Part shown: in pieces, positions 14,560 to 24,188 of the stretch
Layout: the number at the start of each line of letters is the position of its first letter
Position numbering within the stretch: the first letter of the stretch is position 1
From: Burkholderiales bacterium
GTDB taxonomy: Bacteria; Pseudomonadota; Gammaproteobacteria; Burkholderiales; SG8-39
Reading direction: 5' to 3'
DNA length: 64,000 nucleotides
Assembly (NCBI GenBank): GCA_035456405.1
Contig: DATIDG010000084.1
Coordinates: 34,321 to 98,320 of the forward strand
The notes under the pieces: model-generated
Database searches by the model: none
Told to the model about the DNA's origin: nothing
Seen by the model: only the letters and a program-made list of their open reading frames with translations
Position numbers and translations under genes: made by a program

Positions 14560-15819
14560 ATGTTGCTTGAAAGCGCTCTCGGAAAACTGGTGGGGAGCGT
14601 CCGCGGGGGCCGGGTCGTGGAGAGCCGGCTCGGGAAGCTCGTCGAGCGGGTCCGTGCGACGGAGCCCGTGCCGCTGCGCATCCGCCTCTGGACGGGCCGC
14701 AGCTACGAGCTCGGTCCGGATCCCGCCACTACCCTCGTCGTCCCGTCGCCTCGCGCGCTGCGCTATCTCGGATCGCCGGACCTGATGAAGCTCGGCGAGG
14801 CCTACGTCGAGGGCCACATCGACCTCGAGGGGCGGGTCAGCGAGGCGTTCCATGCCGGAGAACGCTTCGTCCGCGCGGTCGGGGAGGCAAAGGTGCTCGC
14901 GCCGCTCAGGCGCTCGAGGCACACCCGTCGCGTCGACAAGAAGGCGATCGAGTACCACTACGACGTCTCGAACGACTTCTATCGGCTGATTCTCGACCGC
15001 AGCATGGTCTACTCGTGCGCGTACTACCGCACGGAGGCTGATACGCTCGACGTCGCGCAGGAGCAGAAACTCGATCACATCCTCACCAAGCTTCGGCTCC
15101 GGCCGGGCGAGCGGCTGCTGGACATCGGGTGCGGCTGGGGTGCGCTCATCATGCGCGCCGTCGAGAAGTTCGGCGCGCAGGCGGTCGGGGTCACGCTCTC
15201 GAAGAACCAGTTCGAGCACGCACGCGACGAGATCCGCGCACGCGGGATCGGCGACCGGTGCGAGGTGCGCCTGCAGGACTACCGCGACATCCCGGATGCG
15301 GGCGGATACGACAAGATCGCGAGCGTCGGCATGTTCGAGCACGTCGGCCTGAAGAACCTCGTGCCGTACTTCCGGCAGATCCACCGCCTCCTGAAGGACG
15401 GCGGCCTCGCGCTGAACCACGGGATCACCTCCGTCGATCACGAGAGCCGCGCAGTGGGCATGGGGGCGGGCGAGTTCATCGAACGCTATGTCTTTCCGTA
15501 CGGCGAGCTGCCGCACATCGGGCTGGTGCTGCGGGAGATGTCAGCGGCCGGGCTGGAGGTCACCGACGTCGAGTCGCTGCGCCGGCACTATGCGAAGACC
15601 TGCGCGGCATGGGCGGCCAACCTGGAAACGAACGCGGCGCGCGCTCGGGAGATCGCCGGCGAGCGCCGCTACCGGATCTGGTCGGTCTATCTCGCCGGCT
15701 GTGCGTACGGATTCGCCCACAACTGGATCAACATCTACCAGGCGCTCGCGTGCAAGCAGGGCGGGCCCGGGATGAACCCACTGCCGCTCACGCGCGAGTT
15801 CATGTACGGGGCGGGTTGA
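14560..15819 (+). CDS. cfa: Cyclopropane-fatty-acyl-phospholipid synthase family methyltransferase
   Basis: AIEYHYDVSNDFY, MVYSCAYY, LLDIGCGWG, SVGMFEHVG and FIERYVFP. Confidence 0.9.
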   Translation: MLLESALGKLVGSVRGGRVVESRLGKLVERVRATEPVPLRIRLWTGRSYELGPDPATTLVVPSPRALRYLGSPDLMKLGEAYVEGHIDLEGRVSEAFHAGERFVRAVGEAKVLAPLRRSRHTRRVDKKAIEYHYDVSNDFYRLILDRSMVYSCAYYRTEADTLDVAQEQKLDHILTKLRLRPGERLLDIGCGWGALIMRAVEKFGAQAVGVTLSKNQFEHARDEIRARGIGDRCEVRLQDYRDIPDAGGYDKIASVGMFEHVGLKNLVPYFRQIHRLLKDGGLALNHGITSVDHESRAVGMGAGEFIERYVFPYGELPHIGLVLREMSAAGLEVTDVESLRRHYAKTCAAWAANLETNAARAREIAGERRYRIWSVYLAGCAYGFAHNWINIYQALACKQGGPGMNPLPLTREFMYGAG

Positions 15820-15845
15820 CCGGGCGGCGCCTCGTTCGGCACACT
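15816..15845 (+). promoter_or_regulatory. Candidate sigma70 promoter (TTGACC-N18-CACACT) for the arg leader/argD
   Basis: Hexamers at 15816-15821 and 15840-15845; the predicted start site falls on the leader ATG at 15852. Confidence 0.4.
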
Positions 15846-15851
15846 AGCGGC

Positions 15852-15923
15852 ATGAACGCTCCCGCCAGATTCCGACGCCGCTCCGCGATGGACGAGACGC
15901 GTCCGTGCGCGCGACGACGGTAG
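15852..15923 (+). CDS. Putative arginine-rich leader peptide ([23 protein letters not shown])
   Basis: 23 codons with 8 Arg (AGA, CGA, CGC, CGC, CGT, CGA, CGA, CGG), directly upstream of a terminator and argD. Confidence 0.6.
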
Positions 15924-15943
15924 TCAGAGTCAGCCGACTTCCG

Positions 15944-15980
15944 CGAAGGCCACAGGCGCTCCCTGTGGCCTTCGTCTTTT
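15944..15980 (+). terminator. Intrinsic terminator/attenuator upstream of argD
   Basis: Perfect 13-bp stem CGAAGGCCACAGG / CCTGTGGCCTTCG, 5-nt loop, followed by TCTTTT. Confidence 0.8.
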
Positions 15981-16005
15981 CCGACCCGTGACCGAGGATT
16001 CGAAG

Positions 16006-17190
16006 ATGCATCTCGCCGACTTTCCGCTGCATGCGCTGATGGAGATCACCGCGCGGCCCCCGCTCGTCTTCGTGCGCGGCGACGGCTCGTGGATCTGGGA
16101 CCACGAGGGGCGCCGCTACCTCGACTTCGTGCAAGGCTGGGCGGTGAACGCGCTCGGCCATTGCCCGAAGGAAATTGCCGATGCGCTCGCGGCGCAGGCC
16201 GCGACGCTCATCAACCCGAGCCCGGCGTTCTGGAATGCGCCGAGCGCGCGGCTCGCGCAGCGGCTCGTCGAGCGTTCCTGCTTCGACCGCGTGTTCTTCG
16301 CGAACAGCGGTGCCGAGGCGAACGAGGGCGCGATCAAGCTCGCGCGCAAGTGGGGGGCGAAGCTCCGCGGCGGCGCGTTCGAGATCGTCACCTTCGACCA
16401 CGCCTTCCACGGGCGCACGCTCGCCACGATGTCGGCGTCGGGCAAAGCGGGGTGGGACACGCTGTTCGAACCGAAGGTGCCCGGGTTTCCGAAAGCGACG
16501 CTGAACGATCTCGCCTCGGTCGAGCGCCTGATCGGGGAGCGGACCGTGGCCGTGATGCTGGAGCCGATCCAGGGGGAGGCCGGCGTGCTGGGCGCGACCG
16601 ACGACTTCATGCGCGCGCTTCGCGCGCTGACGCGCGAGCGCGGCCTGTTGCTGATCGTCGACGAGGTGCAGACCGGAATGGGGCGGACCGGCAAGCTGTT
16701 CGGTTACGAGCATGCCGGCATCGAACCAGACATCATGACCCTGGGGAAGGGAATCGGCGGGGGCGTGCCGCTCGCCGCGCTGCTCGCGAAGGAGTCGGTG
16801 TGCTGCTTCGAGCACGGCGATCAGGGCGGGACCTACAACGGAAATCCGCTGATGACCGCGGTCGGAATGGCGGTCCTGGAGACGCTGCTCGTCCCCGGCT
16901 TCCTTGACGAGGTGACGACGAAAGGACGCCAGCTCGCCCAGGGGCTCGCTGCACTCTCGCGCATGCACGGCCTGGGCGAGGTGCGTGGCCGGGGTCTGCT
17001 GATGGCGCTCGACCTCGGTCGCGACGCGGGCGCGAAAGTCGCCGAGCACACGCGCACGAACGGGCTGCTGCTGAACTCGCCGCGGCCGGACACCCTGCGC
17101 TTCATGCCCGCCCTGACCGTCTCGGCGGACGAGATCGAACTGATGCTCGCCCGGCTGGACGGTGCGCTGAAGAGCGTCCTCGCTCAGTGA
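16006..17190 (+). CDS. argD: Acetylornithine aminotransferase
   Basis: [53 protein letters not shown] and TLGKGIGGG (class III PLP aminotransferase). Confidence 0.92.
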
Positions 17191-17723
17191 GGCCGGATGC
17201 CGGGCCGCGCGAGCAGCGCCTCGAAGCGCCGCCGGGCGTCCGCGAGGTGCGGGTTGATCCGCAGCGCCGCGTCGAAAGCGAACAGCGCGGCGTCCTCGCG
17301 CCCGTTCGCGAGGCACAGCTCCGCGAACGCGAGCATCGCCCCGTAGTGTCGCGGCTCGAGAACGAGCGTACGGTGGAAGTCGTGCACGCTCTCCTCGTCG
17401 CGTCCCTGCATGTAGAAGAGCGTGGCCCGCTTGTGCCAGGCTTCGGCGAACCCGGGATGGAGGGACACGAGCCGCCGCAGGATTGCCTCGGCCGTCGGGT
17501 AGTCCTCCGCGACGATGGCGCGCGTCGCCCGCTCGAGCTCCGCCGCCGCGCGGCGGTCCGGGTAGCGCATCCAGAACGCCCAGATCTCGTCCTCCGTGCG
17601 GCTCGCGAGCGGCGCGGCGAGGTCGGCGAGCCGGCGCAGCAGCGCGTCGAGGGCGCGATGCAGGCGCGGCGACGGGCGCCGCTTTGGGCCGATCCCGATC
17701 AGCTTGAGCGTCTCGGCGTACAT
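17184..17723 (-). CDS. Tetratricopeptide repeat protein (paralog 2)
   Basis: EDEIWAFW...[15 protein letters not shown]...LEPRHYGAM...AALRINPHL. Confidence 0.8.
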
Positions 17724-17751
17724 GCGCGGAAGTTTAGCGCCGGCCCCGGCG

Positions 17752-18294
17752 TCACTGCACCGGTCCGTCGCGCTCGCCCGAGAGTTCCTTCACGGCGGCG
17801 CGGATGCTGCCGAGGTGCGGGTTGACGCGTAGGGCGGCGTCGAACGCGAACAGGGCGGCGGCGCGGTCGTTGTGCCGCAGGCAGATCTGGCCGAAGCCGC
17901 AGATCGCCCCGAAGTGGCGCGGCTCGAGCTCGAGCGTGCGACGGATGTCGGCGACGCTCTCCCGGTCGCGCCGCAGCAGGAAATACAGCGTCGCGCGCTT
18001 GTTCCAGGCCTCGGCGTAGTCGGGATGGAGCTCGACGAGCGCGTCGAGAATCGCTTCGGCCTCATCGAGCTCGCGCGCGGCGATCGCCTGGGTGGCGCGG
18101 CTCAGCGCGTCCTCCGCATCGGGGTCGTCGTGCGCCATCCACACGTTCCAGATCAGATCCTCGACCTGGCTCGCCTCGACCGGGCCCGCGGCGGCGGCGA
18201 GGCGGTGGAAGAGCTCGGTCAGGCGTTGCGGGCCGCGAACGCGGGGCGGGCGCTCGCCGAGCGAAAGGATGAGCTTCAGCGTGTCGTCGAACAC
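17752..18294 (-). CDS. Tetratricopeptide repeat protein (paralog 1)
   Basis: EDLIWNVW...PDYAEAWNKRATLYF...LEPRHFGAI...AALRVNPHL. Confidence 0.82.
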   Translation of the reverse strand: MFDDTLKLILSLGERPPRVRGPQRLTELFHRLAAAAGPVEASQVEDLIWNVWMAHDDPDAEDALSRATQAIAARELDEAEAILDALVELHPDYAEAWNKRATLYFLLRRDRESVADIRRTLELEPRHFGAICGFGQICLRHNDRAAALFAFDAALRVNPHLGSIRAAVKELSGERDGPVQ

Positions 18295-18319: not shown

Positions 18320-21300
18320 CTAGTGGAAGTCGCGCGAGCGGGTGAGGAGCGCCCCGAGCAGCTCGCTTTGGTCGACCAGGCGCCGCGCGACGACGTGCAC
18401 GACGTCGCCCTCGCGCTCGATCACGCCGTGCACCGTCAGCAGGCGCGCGCCGAGCAGCTCGCGCCGCTGGCGATCGCCCAGCTCGCGCCACACGATCACG
18501 TTGACGCAGCCCGTCTCGTCCTCCAGCGTCACGAACACCACGCCCGACGCGGTGCCGGGACGCTGCCGGCCGGTGACGATGCCGCAGGCGTGCAGGATCT
18601 GGCCGTGCCGCGCCCCGCGCACCTCGGCAGCGGTCGCGAGCCCCATGCGCCGCAGGCGGTCGCGCAGCAGCGCGAGGGGGTGGCGCCCGAGCGTGAAGCC
18701 CAGGCTCGCGAAGTCGGCGACAAGGTCCTCGCCCTCGGTGGGCGCGGCGAGCGCGGGCGCGGTCTCGCACACGGGCGCCTCCCGCAGGAGGTGCGGCCGC
18801 GTTTCGATCCCGGCGACGTCCCAGTACGCACGGCGCCGGTGAGCGGCGAGTGCGTTGAGCGCGCCGGCGGCGGCGAGGCACTTGAGGTTGCGCTGATCGA
18901 GCCGGGCGCGGCGGGCGAGATCGGCGACGTCCGCGAACGGCGCCTCGGCGCGCGCAGCGACGATGGGGTGCGCGCCCGCCTCCGTGAGGCCCTTGACCAT
19001 CAGCAGCCCTAAGCGCACGGCGGGCGGGTCGCGGCTTTGCAGCGTGCATTCCCATTCGCTCGCGCACACATCGACCGGTCGCACCTCCACCCCGTGCCGC
19101 CGCGCATCCTGTACGAGCTGCGACGGCGCGTAGAAGCCCATCGGCTGGCTGTTGAGCAGCGCGGCGAGGAATGCGGCCGGCTCGTGGCATTTGATCCACG
19201 ACGACACGTAGACGAGCAGCGCGAAGCTCGCCGAGTGCGATTCGGGGAAGCCGTACTCGCCGAAGCCGAGGATCTGGCGATAGATCTGGTCGGCGAACTC
19301 GTCCGAATAGCCGCGTTCCCGCATGCCGTCCTTGAGCCGCTGCTCGAACGGCTCGAGCCCGCCCTTGCGGCGCCACGCCGCCATGGCGCGCCGCAGCCGG
19401 TCGGCCTCGCCGGGCGTGAAGCCGGCGGCGACGACCGCGAGGCTCATCACCTGCTCCTGGAAGATCGGCACCCCGAGCGTTCGCTCGAGCACGCTCCGCA
19501 CCGCCGCGCTCGGATAGGTGACCGGCTCCGCGCCGCTGCGGCGGCGGAGATAGGGATGGACCATGCCGCCCTGGATCGGCCCGGGACGCACGATCGCGAC
19601 CTCGATCACGAGATCGAAGAAGCACGCAGGCCGCAAGCGCGGCAGCATCGACATCTGCGCGCGCGACTCGATCTGGAACACGCCGATCGTGTCGGCGCGC
19701 CGGATCATCTCGTAGACTGCGGGGTCCTCCGGCGGCACGTCGGACATCGTGAACGGCCGGCCGCGCCGGGCGGCGATGAGGTCGAGCGCGCGCCGGATCG
19801 CCGAGAGCATGCCGAGCGCGAGCACGTCGACCTTCAGCAGGCCGAGCGCGTCGAGGTCGTCCTTGTCCCACTCGATCACCGAGCGCTCGGGCATCGCCGC
19901 GTTCTCGATCGGCACGAGGCGCGAGAGGTGGTCGCGCGCGATCACGAACCCGCCGGTGTGCTGCGAGAGGTGGCGCGGGAAGCCGATGAGCGTGCCCGCG
20001 ATCTCGACGAGCTGCGCGACCGGCCGGCTCGCGGGATCGAGCCCGGCCTCGGCGATGCGCTCGGGCAGCGCCCGGCGGCCGTCCCACCACGCGAGCGAGC
20101 CGGCGAGGCGGTCGACCTGCGCAGCATCGAAGCCGAGCGCCTTGCCCACGTCGCGCACCGCGCTCTTCGTGCGGTAGGTGACGACGGTGGCGGCGAGCGC
20201 GGCCCGCTCGCGGCCGTACTTCGCGTAGAGATACTGGATCACCTCCTCGCGCCGCTGGTGCTCGAAGTCGACGTCGATGTCGGGAGGCTCGTTTCGCTCC
20301 TTCGAGATGAAGCGCTCGAACAGCGTCGACATGCGCGCCGGGTCGACCTCGGTGATGCCGAGCGCGTAGCACACCGCCGAGTTCGCCGCGGACCCGCGAC
20401 CCTGGCACAGGATGCCGCGGCTGCGCGCGAAGCGGACGATGTCGTGCACGGTGAGGAAGTAGGGTTCGTACCCCAGGTCCGCGATGAGTCGCAGCTCGTG
20501 CTCGATGAGCTCGCGCACCTGCCGGGGCGTCGGATCCTGCTCCCCCCTTTCCGTTTCCCGGGCTCCAAACCGCCACCTCAGCCCGTCCTCCACCCGCTTG
20601 CGGAGCCACGAGGTGGGCGTCTCGCCGGGGGGCACGACCTCCTCCGGGTACTCATAGCGCAGCTCGTCGAGCGAGAAGGCGCAACGCTCGGCGACGCGCA
20701 GCGTCTCCGCGAGCAGCCCGCGCGGGTAGAGCTGCGCGAGCCGCATCCGCAGCCGCAGATGGCGCTCGCCGTTCGGGTGGAGCGCCCGGCCGCACGCGGC
20801 GACCGGCTTGCCGAGGCGCACCGCGGTGAGGACGTCCTGCAGCCGCCGCCGCGAGCGCACGTGCATGTGCACATCGCCCGCCGCGACGAGCGGCAGCCCC
20901 GATCTGCGCGCGAGTTCGCGCAAGGCATCGAGCTGCGCGCGGTCGTCGGGACCGCAGAGGAACTCGGCCGCGATCCACGCGCGGCCGAGGAAGCGCTCCG
21001 CCGTCCAGCAGGCATGGGCGGGATCGTCCGGCGCGCCGCGTGGCACGAGCAGGGCGAGGCAATCCGCCAGGCCGCCGTCGAGGTCGGCGCAGACAAGGCG
21101 GTAGCTGCCCTTCGTGGCGCTGCGCCGGCCCCGGGTGATCAGCTCGGAGAGGTTGCCGTACCCGGAGCGGTTGCAGGCGAGCAGCACGAGCTTCGGTCCG
21201 CCGGCGAGCTGCACCTCGGATCCGACCAGCAGCCTGAGGCCGGCTTCCTTCGCCGCAATGTGCGCGCGCACGACGCCGGCGAGCGAGCACTCGTCGGTGA

Positions 21301-21418
21301 TCGCAAGCGCCGCATAGCCGAGGGCGTGCGCCCGTTCGGCCAGCTCCTCGGGGTGCGAGGCGCCCCGCAGGAAGCTGAAGTTGGTGAGGCAGTGCAGCTC
21401 GGCGTAAGCAGGCAGCAT
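18320..21418 (-). CDS. dnaE2: Error-prone DNA polymerase DnaE2 (ImuC)
   Basis: [47 protein letters not shown] and the C-terminal SRDFH signature. Confidence 0.97.
20538..20560 (-). repeat. Short degenerate GGGAAAC-type heptamer tract, in frame inside dnaE2
   Basis: The minus strand reads GGGAAAC GGAAAGG GGGGAGC, encoding RETERGEQ. Confidence 0.4.
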
Positions 21419-21453
21419 TTAGGAAGGGCTGAAAGAGCTCGATCGGAGCTTCA

Positions 21454-22893
21454 CTACGCGAACAGTCCGTGGAGAAACCACCCCGTCGCCGCGCCGCGGG
21501 CGCGATACACCCAGACGAGCGCGTGATCGGCGGTCTGCGCGACGAAGTAGTCGCGTGCGACATCGTCACCGTCCCACCAGCCCGATTCGATGCGTTCCGG
21601 TCCGGCGAGCAGCTTCAGCGGGCCGCCGCAGTGCGGCTCCGCGCCGATCTCCTCGAGCGGCCGGGGCGCGGCGAGCAGCCAGAACGGGCGGAGCCCGACT
21701 CTTCCCGTTTCCCGTTTTCCCTTTTCCTGGGCGGGCATCGGCTCGCGCACCTGCGACGCATGCTCCGGACGGTGCGCCTCGGCGACGGCAACGCCGTGCA
21801 CGGCCACGCTGCCCAGCCGCGCGCGCAGGCGTTCGACGAGCTTCGGCCAGTCCTCGGGACTGCCGCTCTCGTCGGCGAAGAGCGCGATGTTCCCGCCCGC
21901 CAGCGGAACGACATCGGTGGCAGCGAGCGCGAGCGCGCGCACCGGCTCGGGCAGCACGACGGTCCCGAGCCGCTCTCGAGCGAGCAGGGTGAAGTGACTC
22001 GCTGCGCGGCTCGGCGCGACAAGGCCGATCGGCACGACGGTCGCAGCTGCCGCGCGATGGAAGAGGCGCAGCTCCAGCCGCCGCACGCCGCCGGCGCGCG
22101 CGGCGAGGAAACCCTCGAGCTGCACGAACAGGCGCCGCGCCGCGAAGAGGAGGCTCTCTGCCTGCGTGACCTCCGCTGGCAGCTCGAGGCGGGCATGGAA
22201 CTCCGCCGGCGGCACGTAGAACGCGCGCGGGTCGGCAAGCCGCCCGTACGCACGGTCCAGGTCGTCGAGGAGCTGCTGGCCGAGGCGGCGCGCGAGCCCG
22301 TCGCGCGGCAGCGCGGCGAGGTCGCCCACCGTCCGGGCGCCGATCGCGTGCAGCGCTTCGAGCGTGTCCGCCGCGCGCACGGCGATGCGGACGGGCAGGG
22401 CGGCGAGCGCGGCCGGGAGGGCATCGGCGCGCCCGATGTATCGCTCCACGCCGGCGCGCGCGAGCCACGCCGCCCCGCGCGCGGTGGGGGCGCACGCGAC
22501 GAGCACGGTGAAGCCCATTCGCGCGCAGCCCTCGCGCAGGGACGCGCGGATGAGGTCGACGCCGCCGAAGAGCTTCAGACTGCCCGAAACCTCGAGCACG
22601 AGCGCATCGGGGAGCTCGAGCGCGACAGCGGGGGTGAACTGCGCGGCCCAGCCGGCGAGACCGAGCAGCGCCTCGGTCTCCCTGGCCGGATCGCGCGGCC
22701 GGACGAGGAGGTCGTGCGCGAGCGCGCGCGCGGCGGAGACGGCGTTGCCCGGTCGCACGCCGCGCGCCAGCGCTTTGCCGTCACAGGCGATGACCCGATG
22801 ATGCTCCGCGACCGCCTGCGGCTCAGGCGTCGCAAGGCTGCGGGTGAGCGCTTCGAACGGGAGATTGGGAAGGTGGAGCGCGATCCACTGCAC
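21454..22893 (-). CDS. imuB: Y-family polymerase-like mutasome scaffold ImuB
   Basis: WIALHLP start, LAGWAAQFTP, LEVSGSLKLFGG, and C-terminal GPERIESGWWDG...RDYF...WFLHGLFA. Confidence 0.95.
   Translation of the reverse strand: MQWIALHLPNLPFEALTRSLATPEPQAVAEHHRVIACDGKALARGVRPGNAVSAARALAHDLLVRPRDPARETEALLGLAGWAAQFTPAVALELPDALVLEVSGSLKLFGGVDLIRASLREGCARMGFTVLVACAPTARGAAWLARAGVERYIGRADALPAALAALPVRIAVRAADTLEALHAIGARTVGDLAALPRDGLARRLGQQLLDDLDRAYGRLADPRAFYVPPAEFHARLELPAEVTQAESLLFAARRLFVQLEGFLAARAGGVRRLELRLFHRAAAATVVPIGLVAPSRAASHFTLLARERLGTVVLPEPVRALALAATDVVPLAGGNIALFADESGSPEDWPKLVERLRARLGSVAVHGVAVAEAHRPEHASQVREPMPAQEKGKRETGRVGLRPFWLLAAPRPLEEIGAEPHCGGPLKLLAGPERIESGWWDGDDVARDYFVAQTADHALVWVYRARGAATGWFLHGLFA
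21700..21727 (-). repeat. Four degenerate tandem heptamers (GGAAAAG GGAAAAC GGGAAAC GGGAAGA), in frame inside imuB
   Basis: Seen directly; encodes EKGKRETGR in a linker. Confidence 0.6.
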
Positions 22894-23557
22894 GGGGAAC
22901 TCGAGGGAGGAGGGCGTCGGTTCGGGAGTCGAGATCGACGATCACCGGGCGCTCGCAGACGGCGCCGCGCCGCTTGAGGATCTGAACTGCCAGAGCGCCG
23001 GCGGCGGTGGCGAGCGCGAGCCGCAGTGCAGCGGGCGACGCTTCGGCGGCGGCGCGCGACGGCCGGAACAGCATGGCGAGCGCTCGCGTCTTCTCGGCGG
23101 CGAGTTGCAGGCGGCGCAACTCGGCGTACTTCACGGCGCCGGGCCAGACGAGCACTGCGCCGCAGGCGGCGGAGGCGAGCGCCTGCTCGGCGGCCCACAG
23201 CGCATCGCGCGCGGCGGCGGTCCTGACGATCAGGAGCCGGGCGAGCGCGATGCCGGCGGCGTCGAGTGCCGGCGCGTAGGGAAGATGGGGCGGCGAGATC
23301 CAGGCGAGCCGCTTGCCTTTGCGCGAGAGGGTCGCAAGCGCCGGGCCGAGAATGCGCAGCTCGCCGATGCCCTCGTGGGCGGGCAGCAATTCGGTGAGGC
23401 AGCCGGTCGGCCAGCCGCCGCCGGGCAGCTCCGCGTCGAGGGCGGCGAAGCCGGTCGGCACGCTCGCGCTCGCCACCCGGGCGAGCGCGTCGCCGCGCCG
23501 GATGTCGGGGCGGGTGAGCAGCGCGGCCAGCGGGACGGTGGGGTCGGCGAGCCCCAT
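22823..23557 (-). CDS. imuA: RecA/SulA-like translesion synthesis-associated protein ImuA
   Basis: PTGFAALDAELPGGGWP, GIGELRIL, PPHLPYAPAL and LRRLQLAAE. Confidence 0.93.
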   Translation of the reverse strand: MGLADPTVPLAALLTRPDIRRGDALARVASASVPTGFAALDAELPGGGWPTGCLTELLPAHEGIGELRILGPALATLSRKGKRLAWISPPHLPYAPALDAAGIALARLLIVRTAAARDALWAAEQALASAACGAVLVWPGAVKYAELRRLQLAAEKTRALAMLFRPSRAAAEASPAALRLALATAAGALAVQILKRRGAVCERPVIVDLDSRTDALLPRVPRAVDRAPPSQSPVRSAHPQPCDA

Positions 23558-23588
23558 CGGGGAATCTGATGCGGATGCGGGTGCGATT

Positions 23589-24188
23589 TCAAAGCGCGCG
23601 GTTGCGAATGACTCCGACCGCGATGCCCTCGATCGCCAGCGGCGTCTCGCGCGTGTCGACCACGATCGGCTTGAACTCCGGGTTCTCGGGCAGGAGCTCG
23701 ACGGTGGCGCCGCGGCGGCGCAGGCGCTTCACCGTCACCTCGTCCTGCAGGCGCGCCACGACGATCTGCCCCGAGCGGGCGTCGACCGTCTTGTGCACGG
23801 CGAGGATGTCGCCATCGAGGATGCCGGCGTCGCGCATGCTCATGCCGCGCACCTTGAGGAGGTAGTCGGCGCGCGGCCGGAAGAGGTTCGGATCGACGGA
23901 GTAGCGGCCGACGACGTGCTCTTCGGCGAGGATCGGCGCGCCGGCGGCGACGCGGCCGACGAGCGGCAACCCGAGCGACTCCCTGAGCCGCAGGCCCCGC
24001 GCGGTGCCGTCGAGGATCTCGATCGCGCCCTTGCGCTCGAGCGCGCGCAGGTGCTCCTCGGCCGCGTTCGGCGAGGCGAAGCCGAGCATGTGCGCGATCT
24101 CCATGCGCGTCGGCGGGAAGCCCGTCTCCTCGATGGTGTCGCGGATGAGCTGGAGGATCTCGGTCTGGCGGGGAGTGAGTTCTTTCAT
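23589..24188 (-). CDS. lexA: SOS repressor LexA
   Basis: LTPRQTEIL...[10 protein letters not shown]...[12 protein letters not shown], cleavage site VAAG, catalytic GMSM and VTVKR. Confidence 0.97.

Follow-up and report, generated by a model that had tools for sequence, protein, structure and literature searches.

A leaderless arginine-codon leader gene and terminator ahead of argD in Burkholderiales as a probable ribosome-sensed transcription attenuator

In the classical leader-peptide attenuators trpL, hisL, leuL, thrL, pheL and ilvL, a short upstream open reading frame (uORF) with tandem codons for the end product is combined with competing 1:2, 2:3 and 3:4 RNA pairings and an intrinsic terminator in front of a biosynthetic gene. 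The same combination is found upstream of an argD gene in a 64,000-nucleotide (nt) stretch of a Burkholderiales bacterium genome (GenBank assembly GCA_035456405.1, contig DATIDG010000084.1, positions 34,321–98,320), here called the window; its coordinates refer to the plus strand unless stated otherwise. The gene encodes an acetylornithine transaminase of the PRK03715 type, and its leader comprises a small arginine-rich reading frame, predicted to start at the very 5' end of the RNA, and a terminator hairpin. Judged from its conservation, the element is probably a ribosome-coupled transcription attenuator through which argD would be transcribed when Arg-tRNA is scarce, and trp/his-type attenuation sensing Arg-tRNA is the most likely mode of action. 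Unlike the classical attenuators, the leader has sensing codons for arginine and a 5'-terminal AUG without a Shine–Dalgarno (SD) sequence, it precedes a single argD paralogue (argD-argF in Undibacterium), and it occurs where the arginine regulator ArgR was not found.

Several described leaders share part of this design. Consecutive Arg codons in a uORF tune an ornithine-related enzyme in the Salmonella speF leader (orf34/SpeFL), but the target is a decarboxylase, and the parts of PMC6386406 available to us describe a conserved peptide, Rho-dependent termination, sequestration of the ribosome-binding site (RBS) and RNase G decay, and no intrinsic-terminator switch. By its peptide the argD leader is not of the SpeFL/orf34 kind, as nothing beyond Arg is conserved, and an intrinsic terminator is present. 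Rare Arg codons in the Staphylococcus aureus rbfL leader peptide also sense Arg-tRNA, but stalling is described there as occluding a downstream RBS and lowering a biofilm regulator, i.e., the control is translational, of opposite sign, and not biosynthetic (PMC13009471). The mycobacterial polycysteine small-ORF attenuators resemble the argD leader in that a transcript for amino-acid metabolism begins with a leaderless sensing ORF, but respond to cysteine and use RBS sequestration, with no terminator in the account available (bioRxiv 10.1101/834739). In Escherichia coli, the small ORF argL precedes an arginine-biosynthesis gene, argF; it overlaps the argF start and dampens argF translation, and the available parts of the report describe neither a terminator nor arginine sensing (bioRxiv 10.1101/511675). 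A uORF candidate has also been put forward for ilvB of Corynebacterium (PMC11109978); argD is absent from the text of that paper as far as available, and its supplement may list the present motif. Neither "arginine" nor "argD" occurs in the main text of PMC2965389, and PMC8632094, including one supplement, contains no argD motif, both in the parts consulted. Terminator-type attenuation of arginine biosynthesis was not found described in the literature searched, which lay mostly outside subscription journals, and a prior description is possible.

In the window, the predicted −35 hexamer TTGACC (15816–15821) overlaps the stop codon of the upstream cfa gene, and an 18-nt spacer separates it from the predicted −10 hexamer CACACT (15840–15845). 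The predicted transcription start is at 15852, on the leader ATG itself. The uORF that begins there (15852–15923, ATG to TAG) has 23 codons, eight of which specify Arg, in the order AGA, CGA, CGC, CGC, CGT, CGA, CGA, and CGG. The first Arg cluster (15867–15881; AGA, a Phe codon, and CGA CGC CGC) is the predicted sensing site and contains the conserved CGACG, and the second, CGA CGA CGG at 15912–15920 just 5' of the stop codon, is less conserved. The predicted intrinsic terminator (15944–15980) begins 20 nt past the uORF stop and has a perfect 13-base-pair (bp) stem (15944–15956 with 15962–15974, −24.6 kcal/mol), a 5-nt loop, and a U-rich tail, TCTTTT in the DNA. The argD SD sequence GAGGA (15994–15998) lies outside the hairpin, and argD itself (16006–17190), the product of which scores 675.8 bits on the NF002985/PRK03715 model (cut-off 568), is apparently monocistronic here. 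Thus, the uORF, the promoter-like hexamers, the terminator ahead of the argD RBS, and the identity of the gene are all as given by the first-pass annotation of this DNA, which had also called AGA and CGA rare; in 1839 long ORFs of the present genome they account for 1.1% and 5.2% of Arg codons, respectively. The Arg tRNA anticodons found are ACG, CCG, CCT, and TCT (34 tRNAs detected; the assembly may miss some), and since TCG is not among them, CGA would need wobble decoding. Independent DNA contigs (X2, X4, and X17) cover the leader with 0–1 differences, which rules out an assembly error. A further copy of the leader was looked for in the same genome and not found.

Conservation was assessed in PRK03715 orthologues, gathered from relatives, GTDB contigs, and a 301-genome sample of the order, with a main set of 129 non-duplicate regions that have at least 250 nt upstream. 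A family-type hairpin is present in 66 of the 129, five of these being false calls from a loose pattern (L053, L070, L072, L080, and L118). A uORF with CGA followed by another Arg codon occurs in 53 of the 66 regions with a terminator versus 6 of the 63 without; among these six, L048 has a genuine leader whose hairpin is degenerate. A metagenome set of 80 loci was held out; five were too short, and of the 75 examined, 15 have a strict terminator and 14 of these the leader. When the start codon was chosen by promoter spacing only, the first CGACG was in frame with it in 34 of 36 loci, at 18–72 nt from the start, and in 10 of 11 promoter-defined loci of the held-out set. As in the classical attenuators, the frame of the control codons is conserved and the remainder of the peptide varies. 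In the leader frame 25.6% of the codons specify Arg, compared with 11.6% and 13.6% in the two alternative frames, the first CGA being fixed by definition. CGACG is invariant in three alignments (A1, A2, and A4), the second and third codons of the first cluster vary among CGC, CGT, CGA, and CGG, and 18 of 39 representatives carry a further RR. A degenerate DNA pattern run over the 301 genomes gave 26 matches, 13 of them argD leaders and 13 chance-like, with a similar control level, and was not used as evidence.

The promoter and the start codon are conserved in their arrangement. TTGAC lies upstream in 40 of the 66 terminator-bearing regions, with a start codon 35–37 nt after it in 38 of the 40 (30–39 nt were allowed), and all 38 promoter-defined leaders have an nAnnnT hexamer ending 6–8 nt before the start, against a background of 12%. 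An SD-like motif precedes the leader start in 2 of 38 cases versus 50 of 55 argD starts. In a quick tree of the 129 orthologues, leaders are found on the deepest branches and in many families, and absences cluster in Alcaligenaceae, Zoogloeaceae/Azonexaceae, and a few others, a pattern that fits an old element lost repeatedly.

A homologue of the leader is already on record as an RNA. In an Rfam scan of 20 loci, L111 and L113, from one family, matched RF02884 (BcKCsr7, "Burkholderia sRNA 7") with 161.9 and 92.6 bits. Across 61 genomes of that family, RF02884 has 14 matches above the cut-off and five below it; all 14 and three of the five are positioned directly before this argD and contain an RRR(R) uORF. 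A model built without L111–L114, for which 28 loci were given, recovers all 17 argD-linked RF02884 matches and L114 at 41.5–64.6 bits (E ≤ 3e-7), the best other hit being at 31 bits. By this model and by the orthologous gene downstream, the window-type leader is homologous to the RF02884 members, with which it also shares the position before the gene, the CGA-CGY cluster, and the GCCAC/GTGGC terminator. The window itself gave no match to RF02884 at the gathering threshold (59 bits) and was not listed at E ≤ 10, nor did it match any Rfam cis-regulatory model (riboswitch, T-box) at gathering. A sub-threshold match to RF02883 over 15852–15980 (14.3 bits) is not homology, as the leader of the only true RF02883 locus identified is of another kind and poor in Arg. 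This locus (L318, G059:C28:81521-81652), an RF02883 (BcKCsr2) "sRNA", has an ATG start behind promoter-like hexamers, a short Ile/Leu/Val/Pro-rich ORF, and a terminator, and could likewise be a leader that was filed as a small RNA (sRNA).

Published transcript data place the start of the homologue on its AUG, in agreement with the leaderless start proposed in the first-pass annotation. Bc_KC_sr7 is listed as nc5U30/RIT34 at 2,967,641 in B. cenocepacia J2315 (PMC10987360), and a primary transcription start site (TSS) of BCAL2701 is given at 2,967,641, 194 nt before the gene (PMC4603805 supplements); the ATG of the homologous L111 leader is also at −194. A 156-nt short 5' untranslated region (5'UTR) is listed in PMC5688073 (Table S3); it has AUG at its 5' end, extends into the Arg cluster, and stops in the terminator, with the entry "Terminator: yes", and the same source says that such short RNAs arise by processing or attenuation. 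Because of this TSS (PMC4603805) and this listed RNA (PMC5688073), both a leaderless transcription start and a terminator-ended short RNA can be regarded as documented for the homologue, within what these sources cover. Neither a leader peptide nor a link to arginine is mentioned for it in the parts of PMC10987360, PMC5688073, and PMC4603805 that were available.

In the RNA, segment 1 (15874–15878), within the first Arg cluster, can pair with 15899–15903, and segment 2 (15899–15910), the predicted antiterminator strand, pairs with 15949–15959, i.e., with the 5' arm and loop of the terminator (segments 3:4). The conservation of this competition was evaluated in 39 representatives of less than 70% identity, taken from 68 leaders, with two loci lacking the CGA cluster left out. 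The stretch from +20 to +46 relative to the first CGA pairs with the terminator arm of its own locus at −13.2 kcal/mol, compared with −10.8 kcal/mol when arms are permuted among loci (0 of 20000 as good) and −10.3 kcal/mol when the segment-2 stretch is shuffled (0 of 300 as good). Neither of two control stretches, the Arg cluster itself and the spacer after the stop codon, prefers the cognate arm. The gain of the cognate arm over others is largest at offsets +21 to +30, and the segment with this specific pairing lies 21–40 nt past the first Arg cluster. In 35 of the 39, masking a ribosome at the first cluster leaves the terminator arm more paired than in the ribosome-free RNA; the exact form of the candidate protective 1:2 helix differs between loci, and RNAalifold on nine close leaders recovered the terminator and no clean 1:2 consensus.

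Folding with ribosome footprints masked, a check put forward in the first-pass annotation, paired segment 2 of the present locus with the terminator arm only when the ribosome was at the first cluster. Before the 3' arm is made, the pairing of 15899–15910 with 15949–15959 has a probability of 0.58 with the ribosome masked at Arg8 and 0.98 at Arg10, and of 0 without a ribosome, with a ribosome at Arg21 in the second cluster, or at the stop codon. By these models, the antiterminator would be exclusive with the terminator and free only with a ribosome at the control codons, as in the classical attenuators. The antiterminator proposed earlier (15915–15925 with 15936–15945) can form, at −9.1 kcal/mol, but takes only the base of the terminator stem and is not conserved (−2.2 to −7.5 kcal/mol in nine close relatives); in the present genome it nests as an inner helix in the larger antiterminator fold with a probability of 0.35–0.40. 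The pairing of 15899–15910 with 15949–15959 is the conserved antiterminator candidate.

The proposed mechanism is as follows. A ribosome would initiate on the 5'-terminal AUG of the leader RNA and, with ample Arg-tRNA, run through and cover segment 2 so that the 3:4 terminator forms. Untranslated RNA would also terminate, segment 2 then being held by the 5' pairing. When Arg-tRNA is scarce, the ribosome would stall at CGA-CGC-CGC (15873–15881) and leave segment 2 free to capture the 5' arm and loop of the terminator ahead of synthesis of the 3' arm, and RNA polymerase would continue into argD. More speculatively, a ribosome held at the second Arg cluster would sit on segment 2 and reduce basal readthrough. 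Intrinsic-terminator attenuation ahead of argD, the central claim of the first-pass annotation, is thus supported by the conserved in-frame uORF, the family-level antiterminator, the transcript data for the homologue, and the failure to find ArgR in these genomes. In one group of loci (L325, L326, L328, L329, L332, L333, and L087), the uORF stops four codons past an RRRR run and the segment-2 candidate falls after the stop codon, where it would have to be covered by the footprint of a ribosome that has reached the stop.

A number of observations limit the case for attenuation by Arg-tRNA supply or weigh against it. The support at the present locus consists of sequence and predicted folding, and the transcript data are from the B. 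cenocepacia homologue. Among the sequencing runs no RNA source was listed, and the one run that may be RNA has no contig spanning the leader; neither result bears on expression. In the present genome, of 68.9% G+C, a CGA-Arg uORF together with a terminator is no more frequent than expected by chance: 12 of 1644 intergenic regions have both, as counted with a crude gene caller, about as many as the single-feature counts of 103 and 280 predict; adding TTGAC at the right spacing leaves 1 of the 1644, the present locus. A simple consensus promoter and terminator scanner returned no site at the locus, where the −10 hexamer is weak and the U-tract imperfect. Because of this chance level, the weak −10, and the imperfect U-tract, the case rests on conservation and not on the present locus alone. 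The whole-leader minimum free energy is uninformative (z-score −1.39). The uORF criterion and the rules were set after the first orthologue leaders had been viewed, and only the metagenome set was held out. About half of the orthologues (67 of 129) have neither uORF nor terminator, and in five loci (L004, L009, L031, L107, and L153) the hairpin is kept and the uORF lost; promoter and uORF are both missing in these, with the terminator still just before argD.

The folding and the assignment of the gene invite similar caution. In the full transcript the terminator has a probability of 0.96–1.0 in every ribosome state, and since the terminator wins at equilibrium, antitermination would have to act as a kinetic trap. 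The 2:3 pairing of the present locus taken alone is no better than that of shuffles (z −0.2, p 0.4), and when leaders are taken one by one, p ≤ 0.05 is reached in only 16 of 57; this single-locus test misplaced the terminator core in about five loci, and corrected cores were used for the 39 representatives. Column covariation in a blind alignment was equalled by 37 of 500, 36 of 500, and 129 of 500 shuffles. The substrate specificity of PRK03715 rests on annotation, and transaminases are described as hard to assign (bioRxiv 192971, consulted in part); no fitness data for PRK03715 genes were found in the literature looked through. Finally, leaderless uORF-terminator leaders that lack an RRR cluster precede an EamA-type transporter, and the architecture is thus not Arg-specific by itself.

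A uORF that is translated but senses something other than Arg-tRNA supply would use the same RNA switch; the signal could be the general rate of elongation, ribosome-targeting stress, or a metabolite, e.g., ornithine, that acts on the nascent chain in a SpeFL-like arrest. CGA is rare and wobble-decoded, the leaders before the EamA-type transporter share promoter, terminator, and leaderless uORF with Arg scattered (57 of 390 codons), and the Burkholderia RNA is listed in the consulted part of PMC10987360 as induced by organic peroxide and reduced during nematode infection. However, beyond Arg the peptide is not conserved, which speaks against an arrest motif in the nascent chain, the codons specify the end product of the pathway to which the regulated gene belongs, and the second and third cluster codons vary among CGC, CGT, CGA, and CGG. 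We therefore consider such a signal unlikely. That the element acts mainly in trans as an sRNA, as filed under RF02884 (BcKCsr7/RIT34), with argD expressed from leaky readthrough, would agree with the abundance of the homologue as a catalogued short RNA, and is still less likely: the above-cut-off RF02884 matches and three below it all adjoin this argD and encode the RRR(R) uORF, conservation tracks the reading frame and cognate pairing and not a seed sequence, and Sass 2017 groups the RNA with short 5'UTRs and not with independent sRNAs (PMC5688073, in the part available). The element may nevertheless have a trans function in addition.

The nucleotide-level conservation of the first cluster, which goes beyond what Arg coding asks for, could point to an RNA-binding protein or transcription factor that reads the invariant CGACGYC motif and controls the terminator, with the ORF incidental. 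A binding site need not keep frame with a 5'-terminal AUG over spacers of 18–72 nt, as it does in nearly every promoter-defined locus of both sets, and this alternative appears very improbable. The least credible explanation, raised as a way to refute the first-pass annotation, is that the hairpin merely terminates cfa and that the Arg-rich ORF is a chance product of high G+C. It can draw on the chance-level count in the present genome and on L004, L031, and L153, where the hairpin sits right after cfa without a uORF and little room is left for a new promoter. But the same leader is found before argD where the upstream gene is one of many others and where the genome is richer in AT, i.e., it follows argD and not cfa, the uORF is conserved in frame across many families, and transcription of the homologue has a published start 5' of the hairpin. 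This explanation is already largely refuted, although the hairpin may incidentally block readthrough from cfa. Attenuation by a ribosome that senses Arg-tRNA is the reading we retain.

Whether the genome encodes ArgR was a further check suggested for this locus. Hexameric ArgR gave no match in the genome of the window (97.7% complete), and none of the 301 genomes of the order has an ArgR match (PF01316) above the cut-off. ArgR is reported to be conserved in Gammaproteobacteria and absent from the other proteobacterial classes studied (PMC5343134, in the part consulted). A GlxA/AraC regulator beside an argD-like gene in L014 was considered as a Pseudomonas-type ArgR, but this was a guess; its NCBIfam name differs, and the genome of the window has only a 28% partial match. 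This genome carries a second, canonical argD on another contig, in an argD-argF-argG cluster, and in two Undibacterium loci argF lies directly 3' of the leader-bearing argD. The canonical argD-argF(-argG) cluster has no uORF, and a short CGGCGG hairpin with a T-run recurs shortly before its start codon in L259 (G000:C100, about 40–60 nt upstream of 44657, minus strand), L015, L016, L021, and L025–L028. In L023 (G018:C48, upstream of 176673, minus strand), a genome without a PRK03715-level match, a different Arg-rich uORF ending in RRRRTRRR precedes a canonical argD-argF-argG. A yybP-ykoY manganese riboswitch is found just 3' of argD in L132 (2795–2971).

As for the neighbouring genes, cfa (14560–15819) belongs to the cyclopropane fatty acid synthase family, with NF040703 as best match, below the cut-off, and is not part of the switch. 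The TPR genes downstream of argD lie on the opposite strand; they are two tandem, similar TPR-repeat genes (17184–18294, minus strand) that are convergent with argD, and the first overlaps the argD stop codon. Farther downstream (18320–24188, minus strand) follows a row of lexA, imuA-like, imuB-like, and dnaE2-like genes, named from their translations, that resembles the known SOS mutagenesis cassette. The leaders before the EamA/DMT-type transporter (L271, L273, L275, and L284–L313, e.g., G080:C1:1689117-1689241) are siblings of the argD leader in that they share its promoter spacing, a leaderless uORF of about 30 codons, and the GCCAC/GTGGC terminator. The terminator is present in 17 of 30 loci and a promoter-defined uORF in 14, and Arg accounts for only 15% of the codons and is not clustered.

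Relative to the classical attenuators, arginine as the amino acid, the leaderless start, the lineages in which ArgR was not found, and a homologue filed as sRNA are new, and the mechanism itself is textbook. With this leader, classical attenuation would come to include arginine and, in a proteobacterium, leaderless initiation, and it is present in cultured species, e.g., Azospira oryzae (L073). It also suggests that the Rfam sRNA family RF02884 be re-annotated as a cis-acting leader. Arginine synthesis is the textbook case of a repressor-controlled pathway, and ArgR is reported absent outside Gammaproteobacteria among the proteobacterial classes surveyed, in the part of PMC5343134 consulted. 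To the question of how Burkholderiales sense arginine for its biosynthesis, the leader offers a concrete answer that can be mutated, with a defined start, sensing codons, antiterminator, and terminator. It is likely that Betaproteobacteria without ArgR control their arginine synthesis with an ancient attenuator, leaderless and ribosome-sensed, that sits on a dedicated argD paralogue, that this attenuator is one of a wider leaderless family in the order with a sibling on an EamA-type transporter, and that at least one Rfam "sRNA" (RF02884) is its terminated product.

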